A DNA stretch of 64,000 nt. Origin: Squalus acanthias. Its lineage: Eukaryota. Below, in pieces: positions 7,786 through 53,645 of the stretch. The translations under genes and the position numbers were made by a program. The notes under the pieces are model-generated. The model was not told the DNA's origin. It worked only from the letters and a program-made list of their open reading frames with translations, and ran no database searches. The stretch spans positions 41,542,001 to 41,606,000 of the forward strand of contig CM059432.1 of NCBI GenBank assembly GCA_030390025.1, written 5' to 3'. Every line of letters starts with the position of its first letter. The first letter of the stretch is position 1.

Positions 7786-8032
7786 GAGGAGGAAGAGGAA
7801 GAGGAGCAGGAGGAAGAGGAAGAGGAGGAGGACGAGGAGGAATGGAGGAGAGCTGGCCCCCGAGAAAGGGAAGTGTGATGGGTGATGTGCCTGCCATAGT
7901 TGAATAGTGTGTGCAAGGTGTGAGGTGTGCGTGTGCGTGCTGCAGCAGTGTTAAGGTTGTGAGGGTGAAGTGAAGCTATGATTATGAGGTATGAATGGCG
8001 ATAGGTAGAGATTGTTGGTAGGTGATTGATGG

Positions 8033-8346
8033 TTTTTTTTAAATTCGTTCCTGGGAAGTGGGTGATGCTGGCAAGGCCAGCATTTATTGCCCATCCCTAA
8101 TTGCCCTTGAGAAGGTGATGGTGAACCGCCTTCTTGAACCGCTGCAGTCCGTGTGGTGAAGGTACTCCCACAGTGCTGTTAGGTAGGGAGTTCCAGGATT
8201 TTGACCCATCGACAATGAAGGATCGGCGATATACTTCTAAGTCAGGATGGTGTGTGATTTGGATGGGAACTTGGAGGTGATGGTGTTCCCATGCACCTGC
8301 TGCCCTTGTCCTTCTAGGTGGTAGAGGTCACGGGTTTGGGAGGTGC
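8033..8346 (-). mobile_element. LINE family B (CR1/L2-group) 3' fragment inserted in Harbinger
   Basis: Matches the 3' ends of copies at 14678, 37231 and 56643 (gcatttattgcccatccctaattgcccttgagaagg). Confidence 0.85.
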
Positions 8347-8405
8347 ATTGAGCAGTGTGTGAGACTTGTGGTGCAGATATGGCATTTGCAGAAGCCTTCA
8401 CTCAC

Positions 8406-8633
8406 CTTGACCTGCCATGTGAGGTCAGTAAACTTCTTGTGGCACTGTATCCATTTTCTGGGGACCACACTGTTGGCTGTCACATTGTCAAAGCCTTCTA
8501 GATGTAGTGCTGATGGTTTCCTGCCAGTCTGTGGGAAGAGGACAGCCCGCCTCCTCTCCACAGCCACCATCAGTGCCTCCAGAGCCGCATCTGAGAACCT
8601 TCGGGCTCTTTCTCTCTGCTGGTGCTTAGCCAT
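8406..8633 (-). pseudogene. Harbinger Myb/SANT-like gene, exon 1 remnant
   Basis: MAKHQQRERARRFSDAALEALM..RRAVLFP..RKWIQCHKKFTDLT..VK followed by gtgagt donor. Confidence 0.85.
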
Positions 8634-9151
8634 GTCTTCCAGGTTCAGCTGTGAATCCAATTGGAGCTCCAACTACAATGACAATGAGGTGCTGCTGCAT
8701 CAAAGCACTTCCCCTTTAAGTAGTGGAAAAAGCCTGAGCACGAATTTTGTGTGCTACCTGAACCCAGCACAGCTAAATAGCGCTGTGCCATAACACCGCC
8801 CGTTTTCGGGCCATATCCAATTTCTAGGCCATAGCCTTTTATCTTTCATTGGCCAGGAGAGATGTGCAGTATTATGATGGTGTGATGCTATGTTTTCTCT
8901 TCTCTGGTAGTTTCTTCAGGAGAAGGATGTGCAGCCTTGTGATGATCTATATATCTGATCCCAATAGCTGCCAGAAGAGAAGGTGGCGGTCGTATTCAAG
9001 CAGTATGCATGTCAGGTTGATGGTGGTTCTTTCCCATGCTTCTTAGCACAGGAGAAGCTACTTTATCACCTTAAAGCACCGCTGGAATGTAGTCACATGT
9101 ACCATGTGCTTCCAAGTCAGATCAACTTCAAACTAACTTGGCAGGTGCAAA

Positions 9152-17451: not shown

Positions 17452-19702
17452 GGCCTAGAAATTGGACCACTTACCGTCACCCGTTTGCACCGCTGTCCTG
17501 CCGAAAAATGACGGCCGCCACTCTAGCGCCCTTCTCTGGCGGGGTACTCGACAGCCACCATTTTGGTGAGGGCTGGCCCTGGACAAATAAATGAAGAGAG
17601 GGTGACGTCAGTCAGCATCCAACGCCGACTTAGCGTCACCTCAGCGAACTTTGTCCTTCGCATTGAGTTCAGCGCTGGGTCCTAAGATCGCTCTGAAACC
17701 AGAGCGTTCAGCAGACTGACAGAGACATTGTCAGCATCTCTTAAATGGACACGCACATCTTTCAGGTAAGTTTGCATTTAAGCTTTTGGACTGAATTTTT
17801 AAAATTTTAATGAAGTAGTGGCTTTTTGCAATACACATTTAAAGTTTTTTAAAGGTGCAGGGAGTGCTGGGATTGCTGAATGCTTGCAAGGCCTCGGATG
17901 GTAAAGGAAGGCCTCTGAGAAGACAGACAATGCTGGACATACTCAGCAAGTCAGGCAGCATCCGTGGAGAGAGAAACAGAGTTCATGTCTCAGTTCGAGA
18001 TGCTGCCTGACCTGCTGAATATTTCCAGCATTTTATGCTTTTATTTCAGATTTACAGCATCCATCACAGAGGGAAGAGGAAGACGCAGAAGAGGAGGAAG
18101 CCAAAGAGGAGGAAGCAGAAGAGGAGGAAGCAGAAGGAAGGATACAACCCAGACAGCCCCTTTCTAGCTGGGATATCCGGATGGAATCATCCGCCTGCTG
18201 TCCCAGTGACCACAACCCCAATTCCCCTTTCAACATTTGTCCCACACCTTACCTTCCCTCTGTTACTGACCATCACAGTGTCCTCTTGGCCACAATGCTG
18301 AAATAAAAGCCACCTCAAAGCAAACTTTCCAAACCAGCTTTATACATCGATCCATCTAATATAACATCAAGAAGTCAACTCACCACCTTTATGCATTCCC
18401 TTAGTGACTGTCTTGTGTGTGCCTTTGCCTATCCTATTGATGTCACATAGCCAGTGGCTGCAGCATAGCTGGTGGAAGGCTGCTGACCTTCAGTGGGGGA
18501 CACTAAAAATGGCCTTGCTGGTCGACCTTGAGCAGCTGTTGGCTGGGAGTGTCAAATCAAGTGACGGTGTTTCTTCTTCTTCTTCTTCTTCACTCTCCTC
18601 TCCCTCTTCGTGGTCACCCACTGGCTGGGCAGGCTGCATTTCTTAGGTGTGTGAAATAAGGAAGGCACAAGGGTGGAGTTGTGGTGAGGGGAAGGTGGGA
18701 AAGCAAGAGGTGCCTGCCAGAAGGAGGATAACATATGAGGATACCAGCATGTTGTACCATTCTGCCCCGCCGCTGGCCAAGGGCTCAGCCATGTCCCTGC
18801 CAAGAATGGCCTGCACCGTCTCCTCCAAGTGGGTGAGGTGTATGAATGGGAGATGTGCCTCGTGTTTGGTACAGATTATTGGTAGGTGAGTGATTGGAGG
18901 GCGGGGGGGGAGGAGGGTGGGGGGGTGAGTCGTGCATTGAGCAGTATGTGAGGCTAGTGGTGCAGTTGGTAGGAGATGGCTTTTGAAGATGCATTCTCTG
19001 ACCTTGACCAGTGGTCTGAGGTCATGATGCTTCTTTGGGCACTGGAGCCAAGTGGTGGGGGTGGCAATGCTGGCAGTGACAGCCTCGGTGATGTGGTCCC
19101 ACATCCTTCTTTCTGGAGGGCCTCCTGGCCCCTGTAGGTTGAGGACCTCTCTTGCAGTGTTGGCCCCCTGCACACTTCACAAAGCTGGAGTGCTGCGTGC
19201 GAGACCCTGGGTGCCCCTTCCCTGGCTTGCTGAGCCATTTGTGTTAGTGCTGAAGCACTTTTCCCATTTTTTTTTAGGTGCGGAAGGGAATTTAGCTTTT
19301 AAGAGCTGAAGATTCGTATTGGAGAACTCTTTTTAATGTTAATTTTTTTTATTCAGAAGGCAGTTGAGCTGTAAGGGCTAAAAACTGCCTATTTTTACAT
19401 TAACTTTATTCTTTCTCATTTCATTTCCCCTTTAAGAGACCAAAAATGCTTTCTGAAATGACAGCCTCGCTTTCAGAGCAGGCTGTTCTAGCTGCAATGA
19501 TGCTTCAGCCACGCTACATTGGGGCCTCCTGCTGGGACGAACCACCAGGACGGCGTTGCACGTTGACTTTAGTGCTGGGCAAATGTTAATTAGTCCCCAG
19601 CACCAATTTTTCGGTCCTGCCAGGGCCACCATTTTCAGCGACCGTTAACACCCGCTGGCGGTGGCACCAGCAGCTTTTGTGGCGTTCACGAATTTCTAGG
19701 CC
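17452..19702 (+). mobile_element. Non-autonomous Harbinger derivative (transposase deleted, Myb exon 1 remnant kept)
   Basis: TIR ggcctagaaatt / aatttctaggcc; TAT duplication (17449-17451 / 19703-19705); minus-strand MAQQAREGAPRVS..TWLQCPKKHHDL. Confidence 0.9.
17921..18063. mobile_element. Penelope-like family B hairpin carried inside the Harbinger derivative
   Basis: atgctggacatactcagcaagtcaggcagcatc ... gatgctgcctgacctgctgaatatttccagcat; related to 13510-13685. Confidence 0.75.
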
Positions 19703-21950: not shown

Positions 21951-23571
21951 TAGGTGGCGGGTCGGGTGGGATAGTGTTTTTTTTTTACCGCGGGTCGGGA
22001 ACCCGCTGTCAACCCGCTGCCACACGCCTTTCCGAATATCGGGTCTGTCATCGCTTTTTTAACTTATCTTTTCACTTTAAATTCAGGGCCACAGGAACCA
22101 CGCTGATCAGGGCTCACGGCTGTCAATCTGAGGCGGGAGTTCAGTGGCCATTGCTCCAGCTGATTAGTTGACAGCTTCAAATGTACAGTAGAAGCTCCGA
22201 CCTGACAGATCATCACTTTCCTCAGCCACAAGCTGTTTCTCAGTCCATTTCCAGCACAGATTCTGCAGGCTTTCCACTTTCCACTCTCCATCCAGTATCA
22301 CCTCATTGGAAGAACTCTCTCACCATTGACAGAATGCTTCTGTCATCTGTACTTCACCTGCCATCTATTCCATCAACATGGGTGCCCTTTATACTGTCTC
22401 ACCTTGGTCCTCAGAATCCGACCGCAATCAGCCCCAACACCAGCAGCACCGGGCACGCCAGCACCAACAACAACACCAACCTTCTCCGCAATCACCTGAT
22501 GCTGCACAGGAAACAGGGCATCAGCACCCGAGCACATTGCTGCCCGGGAAGCCAGGGATGGCCTCACTATGGCCAGATTTATTTCACTTGACGCTGTACA
22601 CCCTGGCTGCCACATGATGCGCCAGGTTGGCACCACCCCACACCAACACCATAAAGCATCCCTACAATGTCCAAGCCATTCCTTTCACACTCACCACCAT
22701 TGCGGGGGATACCGTTATGTCTCACCATTCACTGCAACTCACTAAGCCATTTCCAAAGGTGCACACAAATCTGTCCAAGAACACAAAGTATTGAAACTAA
22801 AGGCTTCAATAACCAAAACTTTACATGAACGTTGAATAAAACAGCCAAGTGGCTATCCTTATGTGTTGTTAGTTGGTAGGATTGCACTAGGATGAGGGTG
22901 AGTGTGAAGGGTGGCTAGTGAGATGGGGATGTGATAATGTAGATAGAGAGAGAGGGATGGGTGGAGGTGCAAGGTAAGTTGGTGTGAGTAAGGATGTGCA
23001 GGGGTAGGGTAGGGAAGGCAGAGTGATAGGGATGTGATGAGAGGCACAGCAGGATGAATATGAGTGTGGCTTTGTACTAATGTTTCATGATCTACTGAGA
23101 TCATTGAAACGTTTGCGGCACTGCACCCAGGTCCTCCTGACAACATCCCTGCTTGTGACCTTCTCTGCAATGTGCAACCAGGCTGTGTTGGTGTCTTGGG
23201 GAGGTCTCTTTTGCCCATGGGGAGGGAACAGGACCTCCCTACGTGCTGTGCCTCCCTCCATAAGCATATGGGAGAACCTGGGTGCAGTCATTGTCAGTGT
23301 TTGCAGCACTTCAATGCTGCAGAACACGGACATCACAAATGTCAAAATAAAGTTGGCCATGGTCCCTTTAAGGAAACCGGCTGATGACGCGTCATGAATG
23401 ACGTCACCAGACCCGTTTCCTCTAATTGGACTGGGAAATGCGCTGGGCGGGCTTAACAAGCCCCATCAAGGGAAAATCATTTTAGACAGTGGGATGGAGC
23501 CAGCAGCGGGGTCGGGACCCACCACCGACGTCGCTCGCCCCGGACCAGCCGAGGTGAGCAAAATCCCGGCC
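21951..23571 (+). mobile_element. Different Harbinger-family derivative with Myb/SANT exon remnant
   Basis: Minus-strand APRFS..RREVLFPP..AWLHIAEKVTS..RTWVQCRKRFNDL (~23085-23290); candidate terminus aaaatcccggcc at 23560-23571. Confidence 0.75.
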
Positions 23572-24318: not shown

Positions 24319-24420
24319 GGGGGAAAAATTGGGTTGGTTTGCACCTCTCATTAGTGCCCATGGGGGGCTCTAACGTGACACAAATTCCCTGGTCCCCGGG
24401 CGCGGCGCCGCTAATGCCTC
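24319..24420 (+). mobile_element. Truncated Harbinger left terminus
   Basis: gggggaaaaattgggttggtttgcacctctcattagtgcc resembles the 41413 terminus ggggtaaaaattcacttggttgcgcctcccgttagcgcc. Confidence 0.75.
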
Positions 24421-25805
24421 CTGCATCATCAGCAAACTTAGATATATTACATTTGGTCCCCTCATCCAAATCATTGATATTGATTGCGAATAGCTGAGTC
24501 CAAAGCATTGATCCTTGTGGTACCCCACCAGTTACAGCCTGCCAACCCGAAAATGACCCGTTTATTCCTACTCTCTGTTTTCTGTCCATTAACCAATCCT
24601 CAATCCATGCTAGTATATTACCCCCAATCCCGTGAGTCCTAATTTTGATTAATAATATCTTGTGTGGCACCTTATCGAATGCCTTCTGAAAATTCAAATA
24701 CACCACATCCACTGGTTCCCCCCTTATCTATTCTGCTAGCTACAACCTCAAAAAACTCTAACAGATTTGTCAAACATGATTTCCCTTTCATAAATCCGTG
24801 TTGACTCTGCCCAATCCTATTATTATTTTCTGAGTGCCCTGTTACCACGTCCTTAATAATAGATTCTAGCATTTTCCCTACTACTGATGCCTGTAGTTTC
24901 CCGTTTTCTCTCTCCCTCCTTTCTTAAATAGTGGGGTTACATTTGCTACCTTCCAATCTGCGGGAACCGTTTTAGAATCTATGGAATTTTGGAAGATGAC
25001 AACCAATGCATCCACTATCTCTATAGCTACCTTTTTTAAAACCCTAGGATTTAGGCCATCAGATCCAGGGGATTTATCGGCTTTCAGTCCCATTAATTTC
25101 TCCAGTACTATTTTTTTACTAATACTAATTTCTTTCAGTTCCTCATTCTCGCTGGACCCTTGGTTCTCCACTATTTCTGCGAAGTTTTTTTGCATTTTCT
25201 TCCATGAAGACAAACACAAAGGGCTGGATTTTCATTGACCCGTGGAGGCAGGTTTGGAGGCGTGTGGGAGGTTAAAATTGCAAAAACTGGCGGGCAGGCA
25301 CAAGTCCGCCTCCATCCCGCCTCTACGCAATTTTCATTAAATCGTGTCTGCTGGTCCCAACTCCGTCCCGCCTCTAAGAGACGGGATAGGCTGTTAAGAC
25401 CCTTAACAAGCACTAAATTGACTCTATAATGCCATTTTGAAAGGCCTTTGTGATTTTAACCCTTGTTCTCCGTGAAGCACGCCTGTTGTGAAACACGATT
25501 GTGAAACCTGGCCGGAGCACATCTGGATAGCTGACTATCAGTGGCTGGGCTGGGGCTGGCAGGCATCTGGGATGGAGGAGCCGTGGTGCAAAAAAAATTC
25601 TCTCTCTCTCTCTCTCTCTCCAACTCCAACCCGCCCCAGTATCAAAATCCAGCCCAAAGTATTTGTTTAATTTCTCTGCCATTTCCTTATTCTCCATTAT
25701 AATTTCTCCTGTCTCAGCCTGTAAGGGACCCATGTTTATTTTTACTAATCTTTTCCTTTATACATACCTATAGAAGCTTTTACCATCTGTTTATATGTCT
25801 CTTGC
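24421..25805 (-). mobile_element. CR1 RT fragment interrupted by a MITE
   Basis: GPLQAETGEIIMENKEMA, KADKSPG, QHGFMKGKSCLTNL, GVPQGS, KFADDA. Confidence 0.9.
25221..25655. mobile_element. Harbinger-type MITE (435 bp)
   Basis: Perfect 12-bp TIR gggctggatttt / aaaatccagccc; AAA duplication; removal restores the CR1 sequence. Confidence 0.88.
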
Positions 25806-27074
25806 TGCCATGACTGCTCGGGAGGGGTCCTCCAGTACTCGCCAGAGTGGGTGTCCCATTTTGTGGTGGTTTGCTGCCTGCTGCACAATTTGGCCATCAT
25901 GAAGGCGCAGCCCTTTCCAGGAGGGATTGTGGGAACACCTCAGGAGGATGACAAGGCAGAGGAGGATGAGGATGAGGATGAGGAGAAGGAGGATGAGGAG
26001 GAGGAGGACGAGGAGGAGGAGGACGAGGAGGAGGAGGAACAGGATGGAGGGAGGAGGCAGTGAGACAATCAGCCTTCCGGACAGGCTGTCCGTGACCAGC
26101 TCATCAGACTGCAATTCGAATCAATGAAACCCCAGATCTCCGTTGCTTACCACATCCCCATCATACTATCCCTGTCTCACGCAATATCACAGCATCCTCC
26201 TGGATGCAAAGTTGAAATGAGAGAGACTACAAAATATTCCAAAGACCATTAATAAATTTATCTATAAACATATCATACTTACCACAGGAACTCTAATGAC
26301 TAGTGACACTTGTGCCTTCCATAGTTGAATAGCTGTCATTGTGTACAAGGTGTGAGATGTGGGTGTGAGTGTTGCTAGGTAGAGATTGTAGGTGGGTGAG
26401 TGCTGGGGGTGTGGTACATTGAGCAGTGTGTGAAGCTTGTGGTACAGATGTTGGTATGCAGCATTTGTTGAAGCCTTCACTCACCCTGACCACCCTTGTG
26501 AGCTCGTTAAACTTCCTCCTGCACTGGGTATGGGACCTGGGGACCACAGTGCTGCCTGTGACGTGGTGCGCCAACTCCCTCCACATAGTCCGTCAGACTT
26601 GTGGCGAGGGCCTCCTGCCAGTTGGTACAGGACCGCCCACCTTCTCTCCACCATTAAAACCAATGCCTCCAAAGCTTCCTCAGAAAACCTCTGGGCGTTC
26701 TCCCTGGGGCGGCAATCTGCCATCAGCATTTGTAAATAAGTGCTCCTTCTCTTTGTTCTTCTTCTTATGGCTGTTGAGCCAGCTGCACATCCAACAATGC
26801 TGAGAATGAGGTATTGCAGCATCAATGGACCTCCCCTTCAAGTAGTGAAAAATGCCTGTGGCAACCATTACTTGCATTTAGACTATACCCGATATTGGTC
26901 CATCTTTTCAGTGTAACACCAATGAGCTTGGGTTTTTAGATGAGAATCATGACTGCAATCATTTTAATGAGGAGTGAGGATGAATTTTGCGTGCAGTCTA
27001 GACGATTTTCAAATGGTGCTACTTAACCATTTTTAGTCTAAACACTGCCTCTTGGCTATATGAATTTCTAGCCC
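25805..27074 (+). mobile_element. Harbinger right-hand portion (transposase 3' end, acidic tail, Myb exon 1 remnant, right TIR)
   Basis: SHFVVVCCLLHNLAI + E/D-rich tail; minus-strand RENAQRFSEEALEAL..RSHTQCRRKFNELTRVVR; terminus aatttctagccc at 27063-27074. Confidence 0.88.
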
Positions 27075-28157: not shown

Positions 28158-29065
28158 GATTACATCAGATTACATAAGATATACAGCACAGAAACAGGCC
28201 ATTCGGCCCAACCAGTCCATGCCGGCGTTTATGCTTCACTCGAGCCTCCTCCCGTCTTTCCTCATCTAACTCTATCAGCATAACCCTCTATTCCCTTCTC
28301 CCTCATATGCTTGTCCAGCCTCCCCTTAAATGCATCTATACTATTCACCTCAACCACTCCCTGTGGTAGCGAGTTCCACATTCTCACCACTCTCTGGGTA
28401 AAGAAGTTTCTTCTGAATTCCCTATTTGATTTCATGATGACTATCTTATATTGATGGCCTCTAATTATGCTCTTCCCCACAAGTGGAAACACTCTCTCTG
28501 TATCGACTCTATCAAAACCTTTCATAATTTTAAAGACCTCTATTTGGTCACCCCTCAGCCTTCTCTTTTCAAGAGAAAAGATGCCCAGCCTGTTCATCCT
28601 TTCCTAATAGGTATAACCTCACATTTCTGGTATCATCCTTGTAAATCTTTTTTGCACCCTCCCCAGTGCCTCTATATCCTTTTTATAATATGGCGGCCAG
28701 AATTGTACGCAGTACTCCAAGTGTGGTTTAACCAAGGTTCGATACAAGTTTAGCATAACCGCTCTACTTTTCAATTCTCTCCCTCTAGAAATAAACCCTA
28801 GTACTTGGTTTGTTATTTTATGGCCTTATTTACCTGCATCGCTACTTTTAATAATTTGTACATTTGTACTCTGAGATCCCTTTGCTCTTCTACCCATTTA
28901 CATTCTTATTTTCCAAGTAATATGTGACCTCCTTGTTTTTCTTAACAAAATGTAATACCTCACATTTATCTGTGTTGAAATTCATTTGCCAATTATATGC
29001 CCATTCTGCAATTTTATTAATGTCTTCTTGTAATTTATTGCAGTCCTCCTCAGTATTGACTATCC
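28158..29065 (-). mobile_element. CR1 3' fragment
   Basis: RRLRGDQIEVFKIMKG..FFTQRVVRMWNSLP; (GATTACAT)-type tail. Confidence 0.92.
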
Positions 29066-35569: not shown

Positions 35570-36170
35570 GGCTTAGAAATTCGATTGTGCCTGTTCACAT
35601 GGTTGCAGAGACCACGTTAAATTGGTGCTGCCAGCTCATGATCATGAGTCAGGCATTCAGCCAGCACTACCCGCACTACTTATTGGCTTATTAGGTGGAG
35701 TGGGAAATCGGGTTTGAATTACGCCACGTAAAGGCAGCCAGCACCTCTTACAGTGGGTTGCATTCTGGCTGCAGACAGCAGAGAAACATTTTTAAAGGGA
35801 TAAAATGGCTGGAAGAGATATAGACAGGGTGTCCAGGTTCTTGGATTCAGCCTAAGAGGCCCTGGGCTAGGCTATCCACAGGAGGGGGAAGATGCTATTC
35901 CCCCAGGGGGGACAGCACCTCTGCTGCCAGTGGGAAGAGGTCGCTGACAAGGTTACTACCAGGAGCTTAGCCCCCAGAACATGGCTGCAATGCAGAAAAA
36001 AGTTCAATGACCTCAACAGAGTTGTCAATGTAAGGTCTTAGCGCTCACATTAACTATGCTCTCCTCACACCTGCACACACACTACTCGCAATACTCCCCT
36101 CCCCTGCTTCCCTTCACTCTCCTACAATCACTGCACCACATTTCACTTCACCTCCTACTCTCACCACTAT
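35570..36170 (-). mobile_element. Decayed Harbinger Myb-side end with Myb exon 1 pseudogene (on + strand, ~35805-36029)
   Basis: Terminus ggcttagaaatt; translation MAGRDIDRVSRF..RRGKMLFPQ..WEEVADKV..PRTWLQCRKKFNDLNRVV with stops, then gtaagg donor. Confidence 0.8.
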
Positions 36171-36386
36171 TGCAAACAGTGTAGGACTTTGTCAGGCTCC
36201 AAATCCTCCTCAGGAACAGTGCTTCTGTTCCTCTAATGACTTCTGGGTTCAGCTGCTTGCCAATTCATTTGTATCTTACCAGTTGTGGGAATGACAGGAA
36301 AATAAAGTTTCCAACAGGAAAACCTGACTATTGCTGTAAGAGTATTTTGGGGCAGAGCAAGAGTTGCTGAAAAATGGAAACACTTA

Positions 36387-37127
36387 GAGGGAGAAATTCA
36401 TTATAGCCCTGTTTGGGGCGGTAGCTTTTAAAAGTTGAAAAAATTAGCGCCAGGCTAATGTCTTTCAACTTTTAAAAAATTTGGTTTTGCGCTCCAGGAA
36501 GGAAGTGGAGCACTAAATCAAGCGCTCCACTTCCTTCCTGGAGCGCAGCAGGCAGCAGGCGGGGCGGTAGGTGTGCGGCGCTGCACAATGGGCCCTGCAG
36601 CGCTGCCGTGTTGGAAGACTCCTTCCCTGCCTTAAAGGGAAGGCCATCGCTGCAGGCTCTGCAATGGCAAACCTTACCTGGTCCCCGACGGCAGCCGCGA
36701 TCCGGCCCGATCAGCCTGATGCACTGCAGTAGAGTGCCGGGCTGATCGATCTCTGGAGAAGAAAACTGAAAAAAAACCAGAAACATCATTTCAGATTTTT
36801 TATTACTTACCTCGGCCACCTCGCCTTTAAGTATCGCCCCCGAAGCGCCCGGCCTCCGGATGAACGCCTCCTGCAGCTGCCAGTGTTTTCGGCCGGTGAT
36901 GCTGCAGGGGGCGGAACCGAAGTTCGGGTCCGGGGCGCTACCAGGGCGATGCGCACGGCGACGATGTCACGATCTCCGGGCGCAACGCCATACCGCTGCT
37001 GCAAACCTACCGCCGAATATCACGGGAGTCGATCTTCTCGCCGCGCCAGGTGGGTAAGTGATTAGCGCCCCGTTATCGCCCTCCGGAGGCGATAACGGGA
37101 GGCGCAAAGGTACCCAATTTCTCCCCC
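36387..37127. mobile_element. Harbinger MITE (741 bp) related to the intact element
   Basis: TIR gagggagaaatt / aatttctccccc; tta/tca duplication; right end reverse-complements to tgcgcctcccgttatcgcc..agggcgataacggggcgctaa, like 41433-41477. Confidence 0.88.
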
Positions 37128-37840
37128 TCACTGTCTTGCGTAGGCATGTTTCAATAAAGCAGGGTAGAGGATGCATGCCCTACCAAATATAAAACAGTTT
37201 GACTATCCATAGGAGATCCAGGAGCATGCTTTTTTAAAATTTGTTCCTGGGATGTGGGTGTCGCTCGCTGGGGCAGCATTTATTGCTCATCCCTAATTGA
37301 CTTTGAGAAGGTGATGGTGAGCCGCCTTCTTAAACCACTGCAGTCTGTGAGGTGCTGTTAGGGAGGGAGTTCCAGGATTTTGACCCCGCGATGATGAAGG
37401 AATGGCAATATATTTCCAAGCCAGGATGGTGTGTGACTTGGAGGGGAACTTGGAGGTGGTGATGTTCCCATACACCTACTGCCCTTGTCCTTCTAGGTGG
37501 TAGAGATCGCAGGTTTGGGAGATGCTGGCGAAGAAGCCTTGGCGAGTTGCTGCAATGCATCTTGTAGATGGTACACACTGCAGCCACGGTACGCTGGTGG
37601 TGGAGGGAGTGAATGTTTAAGGTGGTGGATGGGGTGCCAATTAAGCGGGCTGCTTTGCCCTGGATGGTGTCGAGCTTCTTGAGTGTTGTTGGAGTTGCAC
37701 TCATCCAGGCAAGTGGAGAGTATTCCATCACACTCCTGACTTGTGCCTTGAAGATGGTGGAAAGGCTTTGGGAAGTCAGGAGGTGAGACACTTGCCGCAG
37801 AATACTAGTTACAGCAAAAGTTATAGCAAATCGTGTGTTA

Positions 37841-39710
37841 CATAGATACATAGATACATAGAAGATAGGAGCAGGAGTAGGCCATCCGGCCCTTCGAGCC
37901 TGCTCCGCCATTTAAGGAGATCATGGCTGATCCTCCAATTCAGTATCCCGTCCCCGCCTTCTCTCCGTAACCCTTAACCCCTTTTGCCTGTAGAAATACA
38001 TCTAATTCCCTCTTAAATATATTTAATGAGCTGGCGTACACTGCCCTCTGTGGCAATGAGTTCCACAGGTTCACCACCCTCTGAGTGAAGAAATTCCCCC
38101 TCATTTCTGTCCTAAATGGTTTAGCCCTTATCCTTAAATTATGTCCTCTAGTTCTGTTCTCACCCGCCAAGGGAAACATTCCTTCTGCATCTAGTCTGTC
38201 TAGACCTGTCAGAATTTTATACACTTCTATGAGGTCCCCTCTCAATCTTCTAAACTCCAGTGTGTACATCCCTAAACTACATAGTCTCTCCTCATAGGTC
38301 AATCCCGCCATTCCTGGTATCAGCCTGGTGAATCGCCGCTGCACCCCCTCCATGGCAAGAACATCTTTCCTCAGATGAGGCGACCAAAACTGTACACAGT
38401 ACTCGAGGTGTGGTCTCACCAGTGCCCTGTACAGCTGCAGCAAGGTATCCCTGTTCCTGTATTCCAACCCTTTTGCTATGAAGGCCAGCATACCGTTTGC
38501 CTTCTTGATCGCCTGTTGCACCTGCATGCTCGCCTTCAGTGACTGGTGTACAAGAACACCCAGGTCTCTCTGTACTTCCCCCTCTCCCAATTTATTGCCA
38601 TTTAAATAATAATTTGCCCTCCCGTTCCTGCACCCAAGGTGGATAACTTCGCACTTGTCCACATTATAGTGCATCTGCCATTTATCCGCCCAATCACCCA
38701 GTCTGTCCAAATCGCTCTGGAGCTTCCTGGTCTCCTCCTCTGAGCCCACCCCCCCTCCTAGTTTAGTGTCGTCTGCAAATTTGGAAATGCTGCATCCGAC
38801 TCCCTGATCCAGGTCATTAATGTAAATTGTGAACAGCTGGGGACCCAGGACAGATCCCTGTGGTACCCCACTTGTTACTGCCTGCCATTCAGAAAATGAG
38901 CCGTTTATTCCAACTCTCTGTTTTCTATCTGACAGCCAGTTCTCTATCCACGTCAATACTTTCCCCTTTATCCCATGAGCTTCAATTTTCCCTGCTAATC
39001 TTTTATGTGGGACCTTATCGAAGGCCTTTTGGAAGTCCAGGTACACCACATCTACTGGCTCTCCCCCATCTATTTTACCAGTTACTCCCTCAAAAAATTC
39101 CAATAGATTAGTCAAGCACGATTTACCCTTTGTAAATCCATGTTGACTCTGTCCTATCCTGTCCCCATTTGCTAAGTGCTCCGCTATTTCATCCTTAATG
39201 ATGGACTCCAGCATTTTGCCCACAACTGATGTAAGGCTTACAGGTCTGTAATTACCTGCTTTTTCCCTACCCCCCTTTTTGAATAGTGGGGTAACGTTAG
39301 CTACCCTCCAATCCATGGGCACTGTTCCCGAGTCTAATGAATTCTGAAAAATCATACTTAGTGCATCCGCTATCTCTAGGGCCACCTCCTTCAGTACCCT
39401 AGGATGCATGTTATCAGGCCCTGGGGATTTGTCCGCCTTCAATCCCTTTAGCTTCCTTAACACCATATCCTTAGAGATATTGACTTGCGTCAGTTCCTCC
39501 TTTGCAAATGTCCCTATTTTTCCCGATATCCCAGGGAGGTTTTTTGTGTCTTCCTTCGTAAAGACTGACCCAAAGTATGCATTTAGTTGGTCTGCCATTT
39601 CCTTATTTCCCGTTATATATTCCCCCGTATCTGACTGCAATGGGCCAACTTTGGTTTTCACCAGTCTTTTCCTCTTGATATACTTATAAAAGCTTTTGGA
39701 GTTAGTGTTC
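37841..39710 (-). mobile_element. Young 5'-truncated CR1 LINE
   Basis: (CATAGATA)n tail at 37841; uninterrupted ORF2 C-terminal part; short aatac duplication of host (37801-37805 / 39715-39719). Confidence 0.95.
37940..39661 (-). CDS. CR1 ORF2 reverse transcriptase, C-terminal 573 codons (endonuclease lost by 5' truncation)
   Basis: Open frame with NYRPVSLTS, QHGF, YLDFQKAFDKVPH, GVPQGSVLGP, KFADDTK, RDLGV. Confidence 0.85.
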   Translation of the reverse strand: MKTKVGPLQSDTGEYITGNKEMADQLNAYFGSVFTKEDTKNLPGISGKIGTFAKEELTQVNISKDMVLRKLKGLKADKSPGPDNMHPRVLKEVALEIADALSMIFQNSLDSGTVPMDWRVANVTPLFKKGGREKAGNYRPVSLTSVVGKMLESIIKDEIAEHLANGDRIGQSQHGFTKGKSCLTNLLEFFEGVTGKIDGGEPVDVVYLDFQKAFDKVPHKRLAGKIEAHGIKGKVLTWIENWLSDRKQRVGINGSFSEWQAVTSGVPQGSVLGPQLFTIYINDLDQGVGCSISKFADDTKLGGGVGSEEETRKLQSDLDRLGDWADKWQMHYNVDKCEVIHLGCRNGRANYYLNGNKLGEGEVQRDLGVLVHQSLKASMQVQQAIKKANGMLAFIAKGLEYRNRDTLLQLYRALVRPHLEYCVQFWSPHLRKDVLAMEGVQRRFTRLIPGMAGLTYEERLCSLGMYTLEFRRLRGDLIEVYKILTGLDRLDAEGMFPLAGENRTRGHNLRIRAKPFRTEMRGNFFTQRVVNLWNSLPQRAVYASSLNIFKRELDVFLQAKGVKGYGEKAGTGY

Positions 39711-41721
39711 TTACAATACCTAGCCTCTGACCTGCTCTTGTAGCCTCAGTATTTATGTAGCTGGGCCAGTTAAGTTTCTGGTCAATGGTGACCCCCAGGA
39801 TGTTTATGGTGGGGGATTCGGTGATGGTAATCCCATTGAATGTCAAGGGGTGGTGGTTAGACTCTCTCTGTTTGGAGATAATCATTGCCTGGCACTTGTG
39901 TGGTGTGAATGTTACTTGCCGCTTATCAGCCCAAGCTTGAATGCTGTCCAGGTCTTGTTGCATGCGGGCACGGACTGCTGCATTATCTGAGGAGTAGCGA
40001 ATGGAACTGAACACTGTGCAATCATCAGCAAACATCCCCACTTCTGACCCTATGATAGAGGGAAGATCATTGATGAAGCAGCTGAAGATGGTTGGGCCTA
40101 GGACACTGCCCTGAAGAACTCCTGCAGCGATGTTCTGGGGCTGAGATGATTGGCCTCCAACAACAACAACCAGCTTCCTTTGTATTAGTTATGACTGCAG
40201 CCAGTGGAGAGTTTCCCCCCTGATTCCCATTGATTTCAATTTTACTAGGGCTCCTTGATGCCACACTCAGTCAAATGCTGCCTTGATGTCAAGGGCAGTG
40301 ACTCTCACCTCACCTCTGGAATTCAGCTCTTAGGTCCATGTTTGGACCAAGGCTGTGATGAGGTCTGGAGCCGAGTGGTCTTGGCGGAACCCAAACTGAG
40401 CATCGGTGAGCAGGTTATTGGTGAGTAAGTGCCGCTTGATAGCACTGTCAATGACACCTTCCATCACTTTGCTGATGATTCAGAGTAGACTAATGGGGTG
40501 GTAATTGGCTGTATTACATTTGTCCTGCTTTTTGTGGACAATACATACCTGGGCAATTTTCCACATTGTCAGGTAGATGCCAGTGTTGTAGCTTATGGGA
40601 ATATCTTGGCTAGTGGCGCGGCTAGTTCTGGAGCTTAGAATATACACAGCTAGTTAAACGTATTTAAAAATGAAAGTGAAAGAGATATATCAGATTACAT
40701 AGAATGTACAGCACAGAAACAGGCCATTCGGCCCAACAGGTCCATGCTGGTGTTTATGCTCCACACGAATCTCCTCCCACCCCCCTTCATCTAACTCTAT
40801 TAACATAACCTTCTATTCCTTTCTCCCTCATATGTTTATCTAGCTTCCCCTTAAATATATCTATACCTTTGCCTCAACTACTCCTTTTTCTAGTGAGTTA
40901 CACATTCTAACCGCTCTCTGGGTAAAGAAATGTCTCCTGAATGCCCTATCGGATTTATTAGTGACTATCTTATGGCCAATAGTTTTGGTCTCCCCATAAA
41001 CATTTACTCTACCTCTACTCTATCAAACCCTTTCATAATCTTAAAGATCTCTATCAGGTCACCACTCAGCCTTCTCTTTTCCAGAGAAAAGAGCCCCAGC
41101 CTGTTCAATCTTTCCTGATAGGTATATCCTCTTAGTTGATATCATCCTTGTAAATCTTTTTTGCACCTTCTTCAATGCCTCTATATCCTTTTATAATATG
41201 GAAAGCAGAACTGTGCACAGTACTCTAAGTGTGGTCTAACCAAGGTTCTATACAAGTTTAACATGACTTCTCTGCTTTTAAATTCTATCCCTCTAGAACT
41301 CTAGTGCTTTGATTGCTTCTTTTATGGCCTTATTAACCTGTGTCGCTACTTTTCGTGATTTGTGTATCTGTACCCCAGATCCCTTTGCTTCTCTGCTCCA
41401 TTTAGACTCTTAGGGGTAAAAATTCACTTGGTTGCGCCTCCCGTTAGCGCCTTAAGAGGGCGCTAATGGGGCGTTAAGCCGCTAACGCCCGGGCGCAGCG
41501 ATGTTTGCGCCGCTCGAGAACTTAACTTGAGATTGTGCGGCGGCGCTAAAACTTACCGCTGCGACCACCTGCGTGCACAGATTATGACGTCATTCCATGG
41601 TGCAACGCCCTTGGGGCGCCCCGGAGCGGAAATTGAGTGGCGCCCCCTGCCTTACCGCCTGGCGCTTCCAACGACCGGAAGACTGGAACGCTATCAATCG
41701 GTGTGGGGCTGGGGGTGGCGC

Positions 41722-41732
41722 TATTTAAAGGG
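41722..41732 (+). promoter_or_regulatory. TATA-like box upstream of the Harbinger transposase
   Basis: tatttaaaggg ~200 bp before the ATG; equivalent tatttaaag at 6535 in another Harbinger. Confidence 0.4.
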
Positions 41733-41923
41733 GGCCTCTTCCTGTCTTTTTCTGTGGTCGACATTTATGCACCACTCATTCTGAGAGAGAGAGAGAGATT
41801 CGGAGAGAGAGAGAGAGAGACTTCTACATTGACTCAACGCTTTGTGAGGTAGTTTTGCCTATTCATCCTAACTTTGTTGCTACTTTAGTTGCTGTACCTC
41901 ATTACTTTTCTGGCAAAGAGAAG

Positions 41924-43084
41924 ATGGGGGCTGCAATGATTGGGGGCGTCGTCCTGCTCCAGCTGAATCGGAGGATACAGAGACGCAGACAGAGAGTGGC
42001 AATGATGGCCAGACGGAGGAGGGCCATCAGGCGCATGTACAGGAGAGCTTACCCTCCCAGGGTATATCGTGAACAGCTCTCCTACATCCATATGTCCGAG
42101 GAGCTGTGTTTGCGAAGGCTGCGATTCAGCAAGGAGGTGGTCACTGAGCTCTGCCACCTGCTGCAGCCAGATCTGCAGCCTCAGCTGAGGTCCAGGACGT
42201 CTCTGTCGGTGGCAGTGAAGGTCACAGTGGCTTTGAACTTCTACGCCACTGGCTCATTCCAAGCTGCTGTTGGGGACCTCGCCAATATCTCCCAGTTTGC
42301 GGTGCATCGCTGCATCCGGCAGGTCACCAATGCCCTCTTCAGAAGGAGACGAGACTTCATCTCTTTCCCCATGACGCCAGACAAGCAGCGTGACCGTGCT
42401 CTGGGCTTTGCGAGGGTAGCGGGCTTCCCCATGGTGCAGGGCGCCATTGACTGCACGCATGTGGCTTTGCGTGCTCCGCGAGAGAATGCAGAGGAATTCA
42501 GGAACAGAAAGGGGTTCCATTCCTTGAATGTGCAGTTGGTCTGTGACCACAGACAGGTGATACTCGCTGTCAATGCCCACTATCCGGGCAGCTGCCACGA
42601 TGCTTTCATCCTGCGCCAGACTACTGTGGCAGAAGTTTTCGAGGCACCGCATCAGCCAGTTGGTTGGCTTCTCGGGGACAAGGGGTACGCATTGAGCACC
42701 TGGCTGATGACACCGCTCCGTACGCCAAACACCCCTGCTGAGCTGCGGTACAATGAAAGCCATCAAGCAACCAGGAACATTATTGAGCGCACAATCGGCG
42801 TGCTGAAACAACGGTTCCGCTGTCTGGACCATTCCGGAGGAGCCCTGCAGTACTCGCCTGAGCAAGTTTCGAACTTCGTAGTCGTGTGCTGCATGTTGCA
42901 CAACATGGCAATCCTCAGGACCCAGCCAATGCCACCAGGCCTTGTAGCACCACCAGAGGAGGAGGAGGAAGAGGAGGAAGAGGACGAGGACGATGATCAT
43001 CAGCAGCACCAAGGCGGGAGGGCGGCCCACAATGGTCAAACTGTAAGGGCCGTCCGTCAACGACTAATAGCAAGCCGCTTCTAG
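41924..43084 (+). CDS. Harbinger DDE transposase (HARBI1-like family), 386 aa
   Basis: ATG at 41924 in the 41855-43084 frame; catalytic GAIDCTH (D), LLGDKGY (D), RNIIERTIG (E); YPGSCHD; acidic C-terminal tail; no stops. Confidence 0.93.
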   Translation: MGAAMIGGVVLLQLNRRIQRRRQRVAMMARRRRAIRRMYRRAYPPRVYREQLSYIHMSEELCLRRLRFSKEVVTELCHLLQPDLQPQLRSRTSLSVAVKVTVALNFYATGSFQAAVGDLANISQFAVHRCIRQVTNALFRRRRDFISFPMTPDKQRDRALGFARVAGFPMVQGAIDCTHVALRAPRENAEEFRNRKGFHSLNVQLVCDHRQVILAVNAHYPGSCHDAFILRQTTVAEVFEAPHQPVGWLLGDKGYALSTWLMTPLRTPNTPAELRYNESHQATRNIIERTIGVLKQRFRCLDHSGGALQYSPEQVSNFVVVCCMLHNMAILRTQPMPPGLVAPPEEEEEEEEEDEDDDHQQHQGGRAAHNGQTVRAVRQRLIASRF

Positions 43085-43378
43085 GGCCCCTGCCATTGCT
43101 ACAAACATTAATCAACCCAGCACGCAACCCCTAAGCCGGCCAAGGCACCAATAATTCCAACCACCAGCCATGTATATTTTGAATACAGAAACTTATTTAT
43201 TTTACAAACTCTGTGTGTGTCAATTCCTCATGACAAACTCATAGAAATAAACACAAAAAAACAGTCAATAACATAACTGGTTCTCACAACCTGGAGATAA
43301 TGTCCAAAACACTAAACAAAAGTTGGACCATGAACCTCGGCCTTTAATAAAAAAATGACCAGCATTTTGGCACACCTC

Positions 43379-45279
43379 CTACTTTTTGCCCTTCGAGGGT
43401 GATCTCCTTCCCTTGCGCACTTCCCCCCTTCTAACCCTACTGCTCCTCCATAATGGGACCTCAGTGGCTGCAGCAAGGCTGGTGGAAGGCTGCTGCTCGT
43501 CAGACCCTGACACTGCAGATGCCCCTGAAGGACGGCCTCGACCACTTCTGGGCCTGGAGGGCCCGGCTGCAGACTGCACCAACTCTGCATGGGCGGCAGC
43601 AGTCTGTCCTACAGGCGGTGGCAAGTGCAGTGGAGAAGTGACAGTGTTGGCAGCAGGAATGCTGTCATCGTGCGAGAGGACAGCAACTCCCTGCTCGCCC
43701 GACACACTGGCACTCCCACGGGGCAGCACTTCAGCAACCGGAGCAATCTGCCAGAGAACAGATTGCTGGCCTGCTGCGGCGCGGTGACAGCCCCGGGGAC
43801 ATGTGCACGAACCATCGAGGTTGGCAGCAGTCTGTGCTCGCGTGGCCTCCATCTGAGTCTGTATGAGAGCAGTCAGAGGTGGGATCACGGCAGCCAGTGA
43901 CTGAATTGCAGCACTAAGCGTTAGTGTGGCATCCGCCTGTGCTACAGCGAAGTGCTCCACACTCCTTGCCAGTGACTCAATGCATTCGGGCACCCTTCCC
44001 ACTGCACCCATGAGCTCAGTGTGCATGCACACCGCCTGGGTGTTCATTTCTGCAATCAGCCGCTCCTCCTCTGCGTCCATTGCAGTAGGAGTGTCTGGCA
44101 TACTCTCCCTCTGGGGAGAAGGCCCCCGTTCTTCCCTACCCCCCCCATGGCGTTGCTGCAACCCGCTGGGTCCTGGAGCTTCACCATCATCAGCCCCTTC
44201 CCTCTTGCTCCCCTCCGGGGAAGGCGTGTTCCCAGTGTGGGCATGGGCTTCCTCGGGAGAGGGTGGCACTGATGCTCTGGCTTCCTCTTCCTCCTCAGCT
44301 GCAGCATCACTCCCAGTGGCAGCTTCAGGGCCCGTCTCCTCAGCTGGTGAATCACCATCTGAAAGCAGGGAGGTACAAGAGTGGCTTTAGCGTGAGGACA
44401 GGGTGGCAGTAAGGGAGGAATAAGTGCAGCGAGTTAGCAAGTTGTATTGAAAGTGTCAAAGGCTGGTGTTGTGAGGGACAAGTGGAAGGACAGAGGACAA
44501 AAAGGTGATGACCTTACCATTGCTGTCCACAACGGGGTCGGCGTCTCCAGTGGCGACGGGACCGATCACCCGGCTTGCCACAATCCTGTGGACGCGCTCC
44601 TCCAGATCGCTGAGGGGTTGCAGCTGAGGCCGCCCTCCACCTGTCCGTTGCTGCTGTCTCCGATTATGCGCCTGAGTAAATATACAGCCATGGTCTTGCC
44701 TGATGTGCCTCCCATAGGTGAATAGCCCTTACTGTATACAGCCATGGTCTTGCCTGATGTGCCTCCCATAGGTGAATAGCCCTTACTGTATACAGCCATG
44801 GTCTTGCCTGATGTGCCTCCCATAGGTGAATAGCCCTTACTGTATACAGCCATGGTCTTGCCTGATGTGCCTCCCATAGGTGAATAGCCCTTACTGTATG
44901 CAAAGTGTGGAATGTGTGTGTGTGTTTGATGAAAGGGCCATAGGTGTTGGATGAGTGTTGTGCATTGTGGTTTTAAGACCCTCTGGCCATAGAGTGAGGT
45001 TGAGATGGAGGGATGGAGAGGTATTGAGAAAAAGCCACTCACCCTGACGACCCGAGTGAGGTCGTTGAACTTTTTGCGGCATTGAGTACGGGTCCTGGGC
45101 ACCATGCTCCTGGAGGAGACGCTCTGAGCCACCTCCCTCCACACTCTTCTGAACTCGCGTGGCAAAGGCCTCCTGCCACTCTCAGGGAACAGCATACATT
45201 GTCTGCGCTCCACTGCGCCAACCAGAGCATCCAAGGCCCGCTCGGTGAAGCGATGAGCGCGTTCTCTCACCCTCTCCAT
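43379..45279 (-). CDS. Harbinger Myb/SANT-like DNA-binding protein; exons 45279-45043, 44671-44518, 44358-43379 (456 aa predicted)
   Basis: Exon 1 MERVRERAHRFTERALDAL..WREVAQSV..RTRTQCRKKFNDLTRVVR|gtgagt; exon 2 tcag|AHNRRQQQRTGGG..|gtaagg; exon 3 ctttcag| in frame with the 43379-44269 ORF; phases 0 and 1 match. Confidence 0.82.
44681..44899. repeat. Perfect tandem array, 4 x 54 bp
   Basis: Unit tatacagccatggtcttgcctgatgtgcctcccataggtgaatagcccttactg starting at 44681, 44735, 44789, 44843. Confidence 0.97.
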
Positions 45280-46242
45280 GCTTGGCAGCAAAATGGATTC
45301 ACAGGTCTCTCCAGGCTGAGATTCAAGGCTGCAATGAGCAGGGTGTGGCTGGGGAGCAAGTGGCCCCCCCGCTTTAAGAAGTGTCCGGCGCCAGTGTGTC
45401 TGTGTTCCCTCGCTAACTGGCAGCAGCTGCGCTGCGCTCGCGCGCTGAGTTAGCGCCTCACTCCTTGACCTTTGCGCCTTAAGACAGGTGTGCAGTGCCT
45501 GCTTTAGCGCTCCACTCACCTCCCGGGGCGGTAAAAGTGAAGTTTCCTGTCAGTGCCGATAATTAGCGCCAGGCGCTAATATTTGCGTCCGGACGATATT
45601 TGCGCCCCAAATGGGGCGCAACCTAATTTCTACCCCTTACTTTGCAAGCAGTATGTCCTTATTCTTCCTACCAAAATGCACCACATCTCACTTATCTATA
45701 TTGAAATTAATTTGCCAATTACACGTTCTGAAAGTTTATTAATGTCTTCTTATATTTTGGCGCACTCTTTCTCAGTATTAACTATATCCCCCAATTTGGT
45801 GTCATCCACAAATTTTGGTATAGCACTTTCGATTCCCGAGTCCAAATCATTTATGTAAATGGTGAACAACAGTGGTCCCAGCACTGATCCTTGTGGAACA
45901 CCACTTCCCACCTTTTGCTAGTCTGAGTAACTACCCTTAACCCCTACTCTCTGTTTTCGGTTTTATAGCCAGTTGGATATCCATTCTGCTACTTGTCTAC
46001 TGACTCCACGTGCTCTGACCTTAATCATGAGTCTACTGTGTGGCACGTTATCGAAGACCTTTTGAAAATCCAAATATATTACATCTACTGCATTACCCTT
46101 TCTACTCTTTATGTTATTTCTTCAAAGAATTCAATAAGGTTGGTCAAGTATGACCTTCCCTTTTGAAATACGTGTTAACTTCCCTTTATTATATTTTCAG
46201 TTTCTAAATGTTTTTATTAAATTTTTGAGTAAAGATTCCATT

Positions 46243-47182: not shown

Positions 47183-48231
47183 GGGAGGGCAAGAAAGCAA
47201 GAGCCGCATGCTTACACCATACACACCTTATAAATCAGAAGATATTGTGAGATGAGGGGGAAGTGGGATGTGAGAAGGAGGATAAAGTATGAGGATACCG
47301 GCATCTTGTATTCTTTCAGCCCCGCCGCTGGCCAAAGACTCTGCCATGTCTCTGCCAAGAATGATCAGCATTATCTCCTCCAAGGGGATGAGGTGAAGCT
47401 AGGAATGCGAGGTGTACCTCATGTTTGATACAGATTGTTGGTAGGCGAGTGATTGGGGGACAGGGGTCGTGCAATGACCAGTGTGTGAGGTTAGTGGTGC
47501 AGTTGGTAGGAGATTACTTTTGAAGATGCATTCACTGACCTTGACCACTGGTCTGAGGTCATGAAACTTCTTTAGGCACTGGTGCCAGGTCCTGGGGGGG
47601 GGGGGCGACACTGCTGGCAATAATGGCCTCGGTGATCTGGTCCCACATCATTCTTTCTGGAGGGCATCCTGGCCCCCTGTGGGTAGAGGACCACTCTTGC
47701 AGTATTGACCCCCTGCACACAGCTGGAGTGCTGAATGCGAGACCCTGGGTGCCCCTTCCCTGGCTTGTTCAGCCATCTTTGTTAGTGCTGAAGCACTTTC
47801 ACCATTTTTTTTACGTGCAGAAGGCAGTTCAGCTTTAAGAGCTGAAAACTGCTATTTTGGAATTATTTTTAATGTTTTTTTTTCAGAAGGCAGTTGAGCT
47901 CTAAGGGCTAAAGACTGCCTATTTTTAAATGATTTTTTTTTTCATTTTAGAAGGCAGTTCCCCTTTCAGGGCTCGACGCTGCTTTCTAAAATGACAGGCT
48001 AGCTTTAAGACAACGCTGCTCTTGCCCCATGCTACGGCCACGCTACATTGGGCCTCCTGCTGAGACTACTGCCTAAAACGGTGCATTACACAGTAGGTTT
48101 TACACTGGGATTATTTAAATCAGCAGGCAGCACCAAAATACCGGTGGTGCCTGCGCTCTTTTTGCGGGCGGCCGTTAACCTCGGCCCACGGTGGCACCGC
48201 CCGTTTTCGGGCTTCATCGAATTTCTAGGCC
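47183..48231 (+). mobile_element. Third copy of the non-autonomous Harbinger family (right part with TIR)
   Basis: Collinear with ~18700-19702; ends aatttctaggcc|tat. Confidence 0.88.
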
Positions 48232-52712: not shown

Positions 52713-53645
52713 TACAACAACTTGCATTTATATAGCGTCTTTAACATAGTAAAACATCTCAAGGCGCTTCACCGGAGCGCCAAGTTCCATTCACCCATCA
52801 CCCCTGTGCTTGCTGACCTACATTGGCTCCTGGTTAAGCAATGCCTTGATTTCAAAATTCTCATCCTTGTTTTCAAATCCCTCCGTGGCCTCGCCCCTTC
52901 CTATCTCTGTAATCTCTTTTAGCCCCACAACCCCCCTGAGATATCTGCGCTCCTCTAATTCTGCCCTCTTGAGCATCCCTGATTATAATCGCTCAACCAT
53001 TGGTGGCCGTGCCTTCTGTTGCCTCGGCACTAAGCCCTGGAATTCCCTGCCTAAACCTCTCCGCCTCTCTACCTCTCTTTCCTCCTTTAAGACGCTCCTT
53101 ATAACCTACCTCTTCAACCAAGCTTTTGGTCACCTGCCCTCATTTCTCCTTATGTGGCTCGGTGTCAAATTTTTTGTCTTTTAATACTCCTGTGAAGCTC
53201 CTTGGGACGTTTTATTACGTTAAAGGCGCTATATAAATACAAGTTGTTGTTGCTGTTGAGCGTTATCAAACAAAATTTGACACCAAGCAACATAAGGTGA
53301 TATTAGGGCAGGTGGCCAAAAGCTTGGTCAAAGAGGTAAGTTTTAAGGAGCATCTTAAAGGAGGAAAGAGAGGTAGAGAGGTGGAACGGTTTAGGGAGGG
53401 AATTCCAGAGCTTAGTGCCTAGGCAGCTGAAGACACGGCCGCCAATGGTGGAGCGATTAAAATCGGGGATGCACAAGAGGCCAGAATTGGAGGAGCGCAG
53501 ATATCTCGGAGGGTTGTAGGGCTGCAGGAGGTTACAGAGATAGGGAGGGGCGAGTCCATGGAGGGATTTGAAAACAAGGATGAGAATTTTAAAATCGAGA
53601 GGTTGCTCAACCGGGAGCCAATGTAGGTCAGCGAGCACAGGGGGA
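52713..53645 (-). mobile_element. L2 LINE 3' fragment (52713-52779 and 53258-53645)
   Basis: PVLADLHWLPV..DFKILILVFKSLHGLAPPYL..LWNSLP..FKMLLKTYLF is the typical L2 C-terminus. Confidence 0.9.
52780..53257 (+). mobile_element. L2 LINE 3' fragment nested, inverted, inside the same family
   Basis: SPITPVLADLHWL; (GTT)n tail; gagcg duplication (52775-52779 / 53258-53262). Confidence 0.9.

Follow-up and report, generated by a model that had tools for sequence, protein, structure and literature searches.

The 64-kb stretch of Squalus acanthias DNA analysed here (contig CM059432.1, positions 41,542,001 to 41,606,000; hereafter the window, in whose own numbering all coordinates are given) carries a two-gene DNA transposon of 4224 bp at 41413-45636, inserted into a CR1 long interspersed nuclear element (LINE). 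It encodes a transposase and, in convergent orientation, a Myb/SANT helper protein whose gene bears a short deletion. The transposon is a PIF/Harbinger-type (PHIS) element of an elasmobranch: it has a TWA target-site duplication, short terminal inverted repeats (TIRs) that begin with G, a DDE_Tnp_4 transposase with its triad, a separate Myb/SANT gene, and dispersed copies. An earlier, sequence-only reading had recognised a two-gene PIF/Harbinger element in a shark-like genome, and every PIF/Harbinger feature that we tested agrees with that assignment. The NuwaI subgroup, which has a CWG duplication, was ruled out because the duplication here is TTA, and a domesticated HARBI1/NAIF1/MSANTD gene was ruled out by the TIRs, the duplication and the very high copy number.

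Structure and insertion site of the element

The host CR1 is represented by the 3' part of open reading frame 2 (ORF2) on the minus strand (40686-41412, resuming at 45640-46240), so that the insertion lies inside ORF2 and not in the tail. The target reads ACTC-TTA-CTTT (41406-41412, 45637-45643), with TTA on the left (41410-41412, preceded by GACTC) and again on the right (45637-45639). At the corresponding site of a CR1 paralogue elsewhere in the window (28870-28945), TTA occurs once, with identical spacing, and the ORF2 frame of the host is continuous in the reconstructed empty site, after removal of the element and one TTA. Because the paralogue has a single TTA and the empty site restores the CR1 frame, we take the duplication, which had been proposed before, to be real.

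Both TIRs described in the earlier reading are present, but they are short and imperfect. The left TIR (41413-41438, plus strand) opens with the 12-nt terminus GGGGTAAAAATT, and the right TIR (45614-45636) begins GGGGTAGAAATT on the minus strand; when the two are aligned, only 11 of the 12 terminal bases, starting GGGG, are identical, and the stretch that follows in both, GGTTGCGCC, is offset by 4 nt. For comparison with other copies, we used contigs assembled from four public sequencing runs (X1, X2, X8 and X17, of which X1 and X2 are deep DNA runs and X17 is guessed to be RNA); the differences, loose ends and joints referred to below as listed are 40 of 210, 24 of 2,512 and 15 of 147, respectively. 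The left end is fixed independently by three X17 contigs, which exit the element at exactly 41413 into dissimilar flanks, and one X8 contig has a dissimilar flank at 45637. In a single contig at that loose end in X8, a right end is joined head to tail, across 11 nt, to the left end of a related element; these 11 nt resemble an 8-nt repeat flanked on either side by TAT. A 13-nt octamer-repeat pattern has one match in the window with one mismatch, which is weak, since 5 of 100 shuffles do equally well.

Inward of the TIRs, the motif TTAGCGCY is repeated three times on the left (41444-41549) and four times on the right (45450-45579). The window contains 10 occurrences against 1.59 expected, and the seven in the element cluster within about 190 bp of its two ends, although the pattern was picked post hoc, after inspection of the sequence. 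We infer that these motifs are candidate binding sites for the Myb-like protein.

The transposase gene (41924-43084, plus strand) is intronless and encodes 386 aa. The stop-free frame with D/D/E residues claimed in the earlier reading is confirmed: a profile search assigns the product to PF13359 (DDE_Tnp_4; E = 2.5e-39, 134.9 bits against a cut-off of 24.8), and D176, D226 and E288 are all present, followed by an acidic, low-complexity tail. All three residues are kept in 45 of the 107 listed homologues spanning all three positions. A structural model has an RNase-H-like core (predicted template-modelling score 0.77) with the triad in a strand-strand-helix setting. The nearest named transposases are all from elasmobranchs, with a best identity of 71%, and the window's exact transposase was not found in the protein collection searched. 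Structure searches, by sequence in the PDB and by fold, returned nothing at or below E = 0.001. The top rows by fold were TnsB, retroviral integrases and piggyBac for the transposase and, for a homologue of the Myb protein, the DNA-binding domains of Sap1 and Zeste; they are only weak leads. Judged by these features, the transposase gene and the ends of this copy look usable. Between the two convergent genes lies a shared 3' spacer (43085-43378) with candidate AATAAA/ATTAAA signals for the plus strand at 43246 and 43346 and for the minus strand at 43196 and 43343.

The Myb/SANT gene and its deletion

The helper gene lies on the minus strand. Exon 1 (45043-45279) starts with an ATG at 45279, encodes the Myb/SANT trihelix core and ends at a GTGAGT donor in phase 0; exon 2, as it remains here, occupies 44518-44671; intron 2 (44359-44517) is a predicted GT..AG intron with 14 of 17 pyrimidines ahead of its acceptor; and exon 3 (43379-44358) encodes a low-complexity and coiled part, with the stop at 43379. 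At about 44139, exon 3 is 3 nt longer than in the majority contigs of X17 and X8, in frame. The product matches PF13873 in a profile search (E = 2.8e-07, 30.8 bits against a cut-off of 21.7), and the closest named Myb proteins are all from sharks and rays. The three exons join into an open frame of 456 aa. To this extent the Myb/SANT gene of the earlier reading is present, but the open frame depends on a non-native AG that a deletion has exposed.

Comparison with other copies shows that this gene lacks its native intron-1 acceptor and three codons. At 44672, ten X2 contigs (agreement 0.95) and two X8 contigs contain an extra 30 nt; the X2 contigs place the extra letters before 44672 and the X8 contigs place identical letters after it, and we derived the length and frame of the deletion by hand from the two consensus strings. 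The breakpoint is at 44672-44673 (minus strand), and the missing 30 nt comprise the last 21 nt of the intron, with a T-rich tract and CAG, and 9 coding nt. The gene has thereby lost the intron-1 acceptor with its pyrimidine-rich tract, together with codons A-K-L at the start of exon 2, which begins A-H-N here and A-K-L-A-H-N in other copies. The AG that now abuts exon 2 was formerly intronic, 4 nt past the likely native branch A. The description of this element as an autonomous, intact two-gene copy fails on this loss. The earlier reading had itself proposed that a consensus revealing inactivating differences would count against it, and a difference of that kind, with acceptor and codons gone, is what the comparison found.

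The same gap is apparent in the protein. The exon 1/2 junction in the window reads KKFNDLTRVVR-AHNRR, and all ten of a hand-picked set of close homologues differ from the window's spliced protein by a 3-residue gap at this junction. A lysine stands at the missing offset in 34 of the 43 homologues (among 78 hits) that have the helix-3 anchor, and in an alignment of 44 sequences the conservation of the lost lysine is 90% or more. Likewise, the offset of a GGG motif is 24 in 15 of the 16 homologues that possess it and 21 in the window protein. In the AlphaFold model of one homologue (P0126), the three residues lie within a continuous helix, 61-88, with a predicted local distance difference test score of 96-97 over 61-80.

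Of 23 AGs tested on the 3' side of intron 1, only this junction AG gives a full-length product, with the other 22 giving 79-217 aa. Branch-like yTnAy motifs occur only at -6 from the new acceptor, which is too close, and at -48, with three AGs between. The splicing machinery can pass over AGs nearer than 12-15 nt to the branch point, and it normally chooses the first one beyond (PMC1431707). Because the branch geometry is poor and near AGs can be bypassed, mis-splicing is likely: the gene probably mis-splices or, at best, would yield a protein three residues short in helix 3. This copy illustrates a trap, in that an AG exposed by a deletion lets a helper gene 'splice' open on paper, and the lost acceptor is revealed only through comparison with other copies.

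Adjoining the deletion, intron 1 contains a perfect tandem array of 4.1 units of 54 bp (44681-44899), which the earlier reading did not remark on. The units are 100% identical to one another. Majority contigs have a single unit, as do two relics elsewhere in the window (7883-7935 and 26311-26367), indicating that the unit comes from conserved, single-copy intron sequence. On the Myb strand, each unit contains a donor-like GTAAGG and several AGs. At 44738, an A>G difference from the window accounts for 74% of X2 depth and 100% of X17 and X8 depth.

Abundance and age of the family

The family is very abundant and diverse. Parts of the stretch are contained in 20 of 21 listed public runs, from 10 studies and with at least six organism labels, and the deep DNA runs contribute 47,438 and 73,660 contigs that match it, mostly at 90-99%. 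None of the listed runs with part of the stretch is on record as RNA, which bears in neither direction on expression. The contigs omit rare variants, no listed piece spans this locus, and the summed depth of about 500,000 should not be read as a copy number. The left-end 26-mer had no match in metagenome contigs, as expected for a shark repeat. Contigs of X17 cover introns and element ends alike, with no splice joint among the listed joints, and one of them (44873-45331) crosses intron 1 unspliced, so X17 may hold read-through transcripts or DNA. Joints running from one side of the element to the other (41376-45656 in X1 and X2; 41370-45832 in X1) were considered as an empty allele of this locus and rejected: the letters they enclose are unknown, and they are consistent with other CR1 copies.

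The window differs from X8 majority contigs at 30 of 2332 nt, or 1.29% (confidence interval 0.87-1.83; eight listed pieces), and from X17 majority contigs at 20 of 1487 nt, or 1.34%, in five of eight pieces, three low-depth, more diverged pieces having been excluded. Of the listed differences, 38 fall in the element and 37 were used, with 44732, within the tandem array, set aside. Twelve of the 37 are near-private to the window, in the sense that no less than 93% of the depth supports the other letter, in X1 and in X2 alike, so that the copy has at least 12 such substitutions; six are non-synonymous, three synonymous and three non-coding, and three of the twelve are CpG decay in the window. 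At the mutation rate of the epaulette shark (7e-10 per site per generation, upper bound 14.1e-10; PMC10587355), 12 changes in 4224 bp correspond to at least 2-4 million generations and a divergence of 1.3% to 9-19 million. These ages are rough, because the rate is that of another species, CpG sites change faster, some differences mark subfamilies, assembly errors may add others, and organism A among the run labels may differ from the species of the window. Nonetheless, they argue against a contemporary insertion. With about 1.3% divergence from the majority sequence and near-private substitutions of its own, this does not look like the recent copy that the earlier reading described; the same two observations and the lost acceptor and codons speak against its being still mobile.

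That reading had also pointed to CpG content. The observed-to-expected CpG ratio is indeed higher in the element (0.57) than in the flanking CR1 (0.24 on the left, 0.51 on the right), and it is 0.35-0.40 in the rest of the window. We rejected CpG richness as a sign of youth, however, because a non-coding relic nearby (about 36330-37130) is richer still, at 0.94. An open transposase frame is similarly compatible with neutral decay, with no stop arising in 63% of 3000 simulations of neutral substitution at 1.3% and in 89% at 0.3%.

The region is rich in Harbinger sequence. At least six decayed transposase or Myb relics lie in the 64 kb, with stops and frameshifts (6829-8700, 18450-19700, 23091-23279, 25800-26710, 35823-36030 and 47280-48230), and where aligned they are 64-72% alike to the focal element. 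Just downstream of a Myb relic is a non-coding Harbinger-like element (about 36330-37127) that is 77% alike to the left end of the focal element, with the end GGGGGAGAAATT at 37127 and two TTAGCGCC motifs. Further Harbinger-like termini occur at 24319 and 63220 (GGGGGAAAAATT and GGGGTGGAAATT), with no partner mapped. Among other repeats, 37940-39745 (minus strand) holds a stop-free, 601-aa reverse-transcriptase frame of CR1 type (PF00078), 5'-truncated, and the 843 bp at 52801-53643 are 83% identical to their own reverse complement, possibly a foldback or head-to-head pieces of short interspersed nuclear elements or LINEs.

Autonomy, mobility and known relatives

In the Ping/Pong system and in the reconstructed zebrafish element Harbinger3_DR, both proteins are required, with the Myb-like protein binding the ends and bringing in the transposase, and Harbinger excision is usually precise (PMC2836001, PMC9392472). 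By analogy with this literature, we propose that the Myb-like protein of the shark family would bind the element ends, probably at the repeated TTAGCGCY motifs, and carry the transposase into the nucleus, where the DDE transposase would excise and reinsert the element with a 3-bp duplication. The copy in the window would have entered a TTA inside CR1 by such a cut-and-paste event and then decayed independently. With its Myb product mis-spliced or shortened, it most likely cannot transpose unaided; if a copy with an intact Myb gene were expressed, this one could still be mobilised in trans or could itself supply transposase. We therefore think it likely that this is an ageing and probably non-autonomous, full-length copy of an abundant elasmobranch family, movable only in trans.

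Several observations pull the other way. The identity of the array units implies a recent change at the locus, the transposase deviates from conserved columns at just two sites (S93 and A236), no stop arises from any of the 25 listed coding differences, and none of the seven listed insertions or deletions inside the element shifts the frame of either coding sequence. The new acceptor is weak, yet it has 10 of 17 pyrimidines ahead of it, and some use is possible; the deletion lies about 10 residues past the last conserved aromatic of the trihelix, such that the aromatic core is spared and DNA binding may survive. Assembly error could explain some of the differences, and if organism A is not the species of the window, the 'private' changes could instead mark a young subfamily. 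A rival reading would make the copy autonomous, with the junction AG used, the shortened Myb protein working and the element still transposing; both frames are open if splicing occurs at 44671, the DDE triad is intact, the ends and subterminal motifs are in place, and the deletion preserves the frame. A deletion would keep the frame by chance one time in three, however, and autonomy would have to be reconciled with the missing native acceptor, with the absence of a lysine that at least 90% of 44 homologues retain, with poor branch-point geometry, and with near-private alleles indicating that, within the runs compared, this copy founded few daughters. We consider autonomy of this copy quite improbable.

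Alternatively, the copy may be damaged while its family transposes in the species now, from intact master copies elsewhere. The majority sequence looks open in both genes, the listed insertions and deletions being free of frameshifts, and run X17, if it is indeed RNA, contains most of the element. Moreover, 7,375 of the 47,438 and 12,605 of the 73,660 matching contigs (16-17%) are at least 99% alike to the stretch, and although these are short contigs with flanks included, they leave room for young copies. Set against this, most contigs are only 90-99% alike, as expected of many diverged copies; the listed joints include no splice joint, and an X17 contig crosses intron 1 unspliced; and X8, a run with a different organism label, has identical majority letters. 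We judge current transposition of the family unlikely. The near-identity of the majority sequence under six organism labels could also reflect recent horizontal transfer into the lineage. Runs labelled as organisms A-F contain 0.37-0.73 of sampled words, and transfer of a Harbinger into a marine vertebrate is on record (PMC8437027). Yet X8 (organism C) also contains the CR1 flank, at similarly low depth, as would be seen if shark DNA were thinly covered and its high-copy repeats alone assembled, and shares of 0.42-0.53 agree with the value of 0.53 predicted for runs that contain nothing but the majority path. Given also that the nearest named transposases and Myb proteins are elasmobranch, the former at no more than 71% identity, and that older relatives lie in the same window, we regard a recent transfer as very improbable. 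The reading that we prefer remains that of an ageing copy dependent on helper protein made elsewhere.

The element resembles described PIF/Harbinger and NuwaII (PHIS) families in its TWA/TNA duplication, TIRs of less than 60 bp starting from GG, a length of about 4.1-4.7 kb, and DDE and Myb/SANT frames (PMC4482050). The NuwaII target is C-TNA-G and that found here is C-TTA-C; the 5' C agrees and the 3' base disagrees, at one site only. As described (PMC2836001, PMC9392472), zebrafish Harbinger3_DR/Harbinger3N_DR similarly have separate DDE and Myb-like genes, a 3-bp duplication and short TIRs, and a Harbinger3_DR consensus rebuilt from dead copies transposes in human cells given both proteins. 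By contrast, the duplication here is TTA, and the element, known from sequence alone, is one natural copy whose Myb gene is damaged. Closer in setting is Harbinger-Snek of sea kraits, an abundant family of marine vertebrates with full-length copies and copies with one working ORF, for which 269 intact copies in L. colubrina, RNA reads over both ORFs in L. laticaudata and horizontal transfer are reported (PMC8437027); the shark family is known here from one damaged copy and contigs. Annotated elasmobranch proteins named 'putative nuclease HARBI1' and 'myb-related transcription factor', from Pristiophorus, Heptranchias, Heterodontus, Narcine, Mobula, Mustelus and others, include the nearest transposases and have the same Myb helix-3 pattern. 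Unlike a domesticated HARBI1-type gene, the window transposase is flanked by TIRs and a duplication. A spontaneous Harbinger insertion has been reported in a nematode (bioRxiv 10.64898/2026.05.26.728016).

Taken by itself, the copy is unremarkable, and 'potentially active' vertebrate Harbingers have already been described in sea kraits (PMC8437027). Indeed, the label is common, since Han et al. (2015) applied the term 'potential active' to 88 PIF/Harbinger and 22 NuwaII families with no criterion beyond two intact ORFs (PMC4482050). The family has modest value, because it documents at least one elasmobranch in which Harbingers occur in great abundance. By contrast, a 2022 survey gives Harbinger as absent from the elephant shark, the only cartilaginous species it tested, and asks that other cartilaginous fish be checked (PMC9179366). 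This was the only source in which we found a published description bearing on Harbinger families in sharks or rays, although Repbase, Dfam and genome supplements may well catalogue such families. The earlier suggestion of a transposition tool can be kept for the family, which is usable as an assay template, and not for this damaged copy. Because the majority sequence is only about 1.3% from the copy and appears open in both genes, testing a consensus pair in cells would be straightforward. It is doubtful, in our estimation, that intact master copies persist in the shark genome and that the family transposes in the wild, moving damaged copies such as this one in trans. If it did, this would be a naturally active vertebrate Harbinger system in a cartilaginous fish, requiring no reconstruction, with precise excision and an extended target preference.

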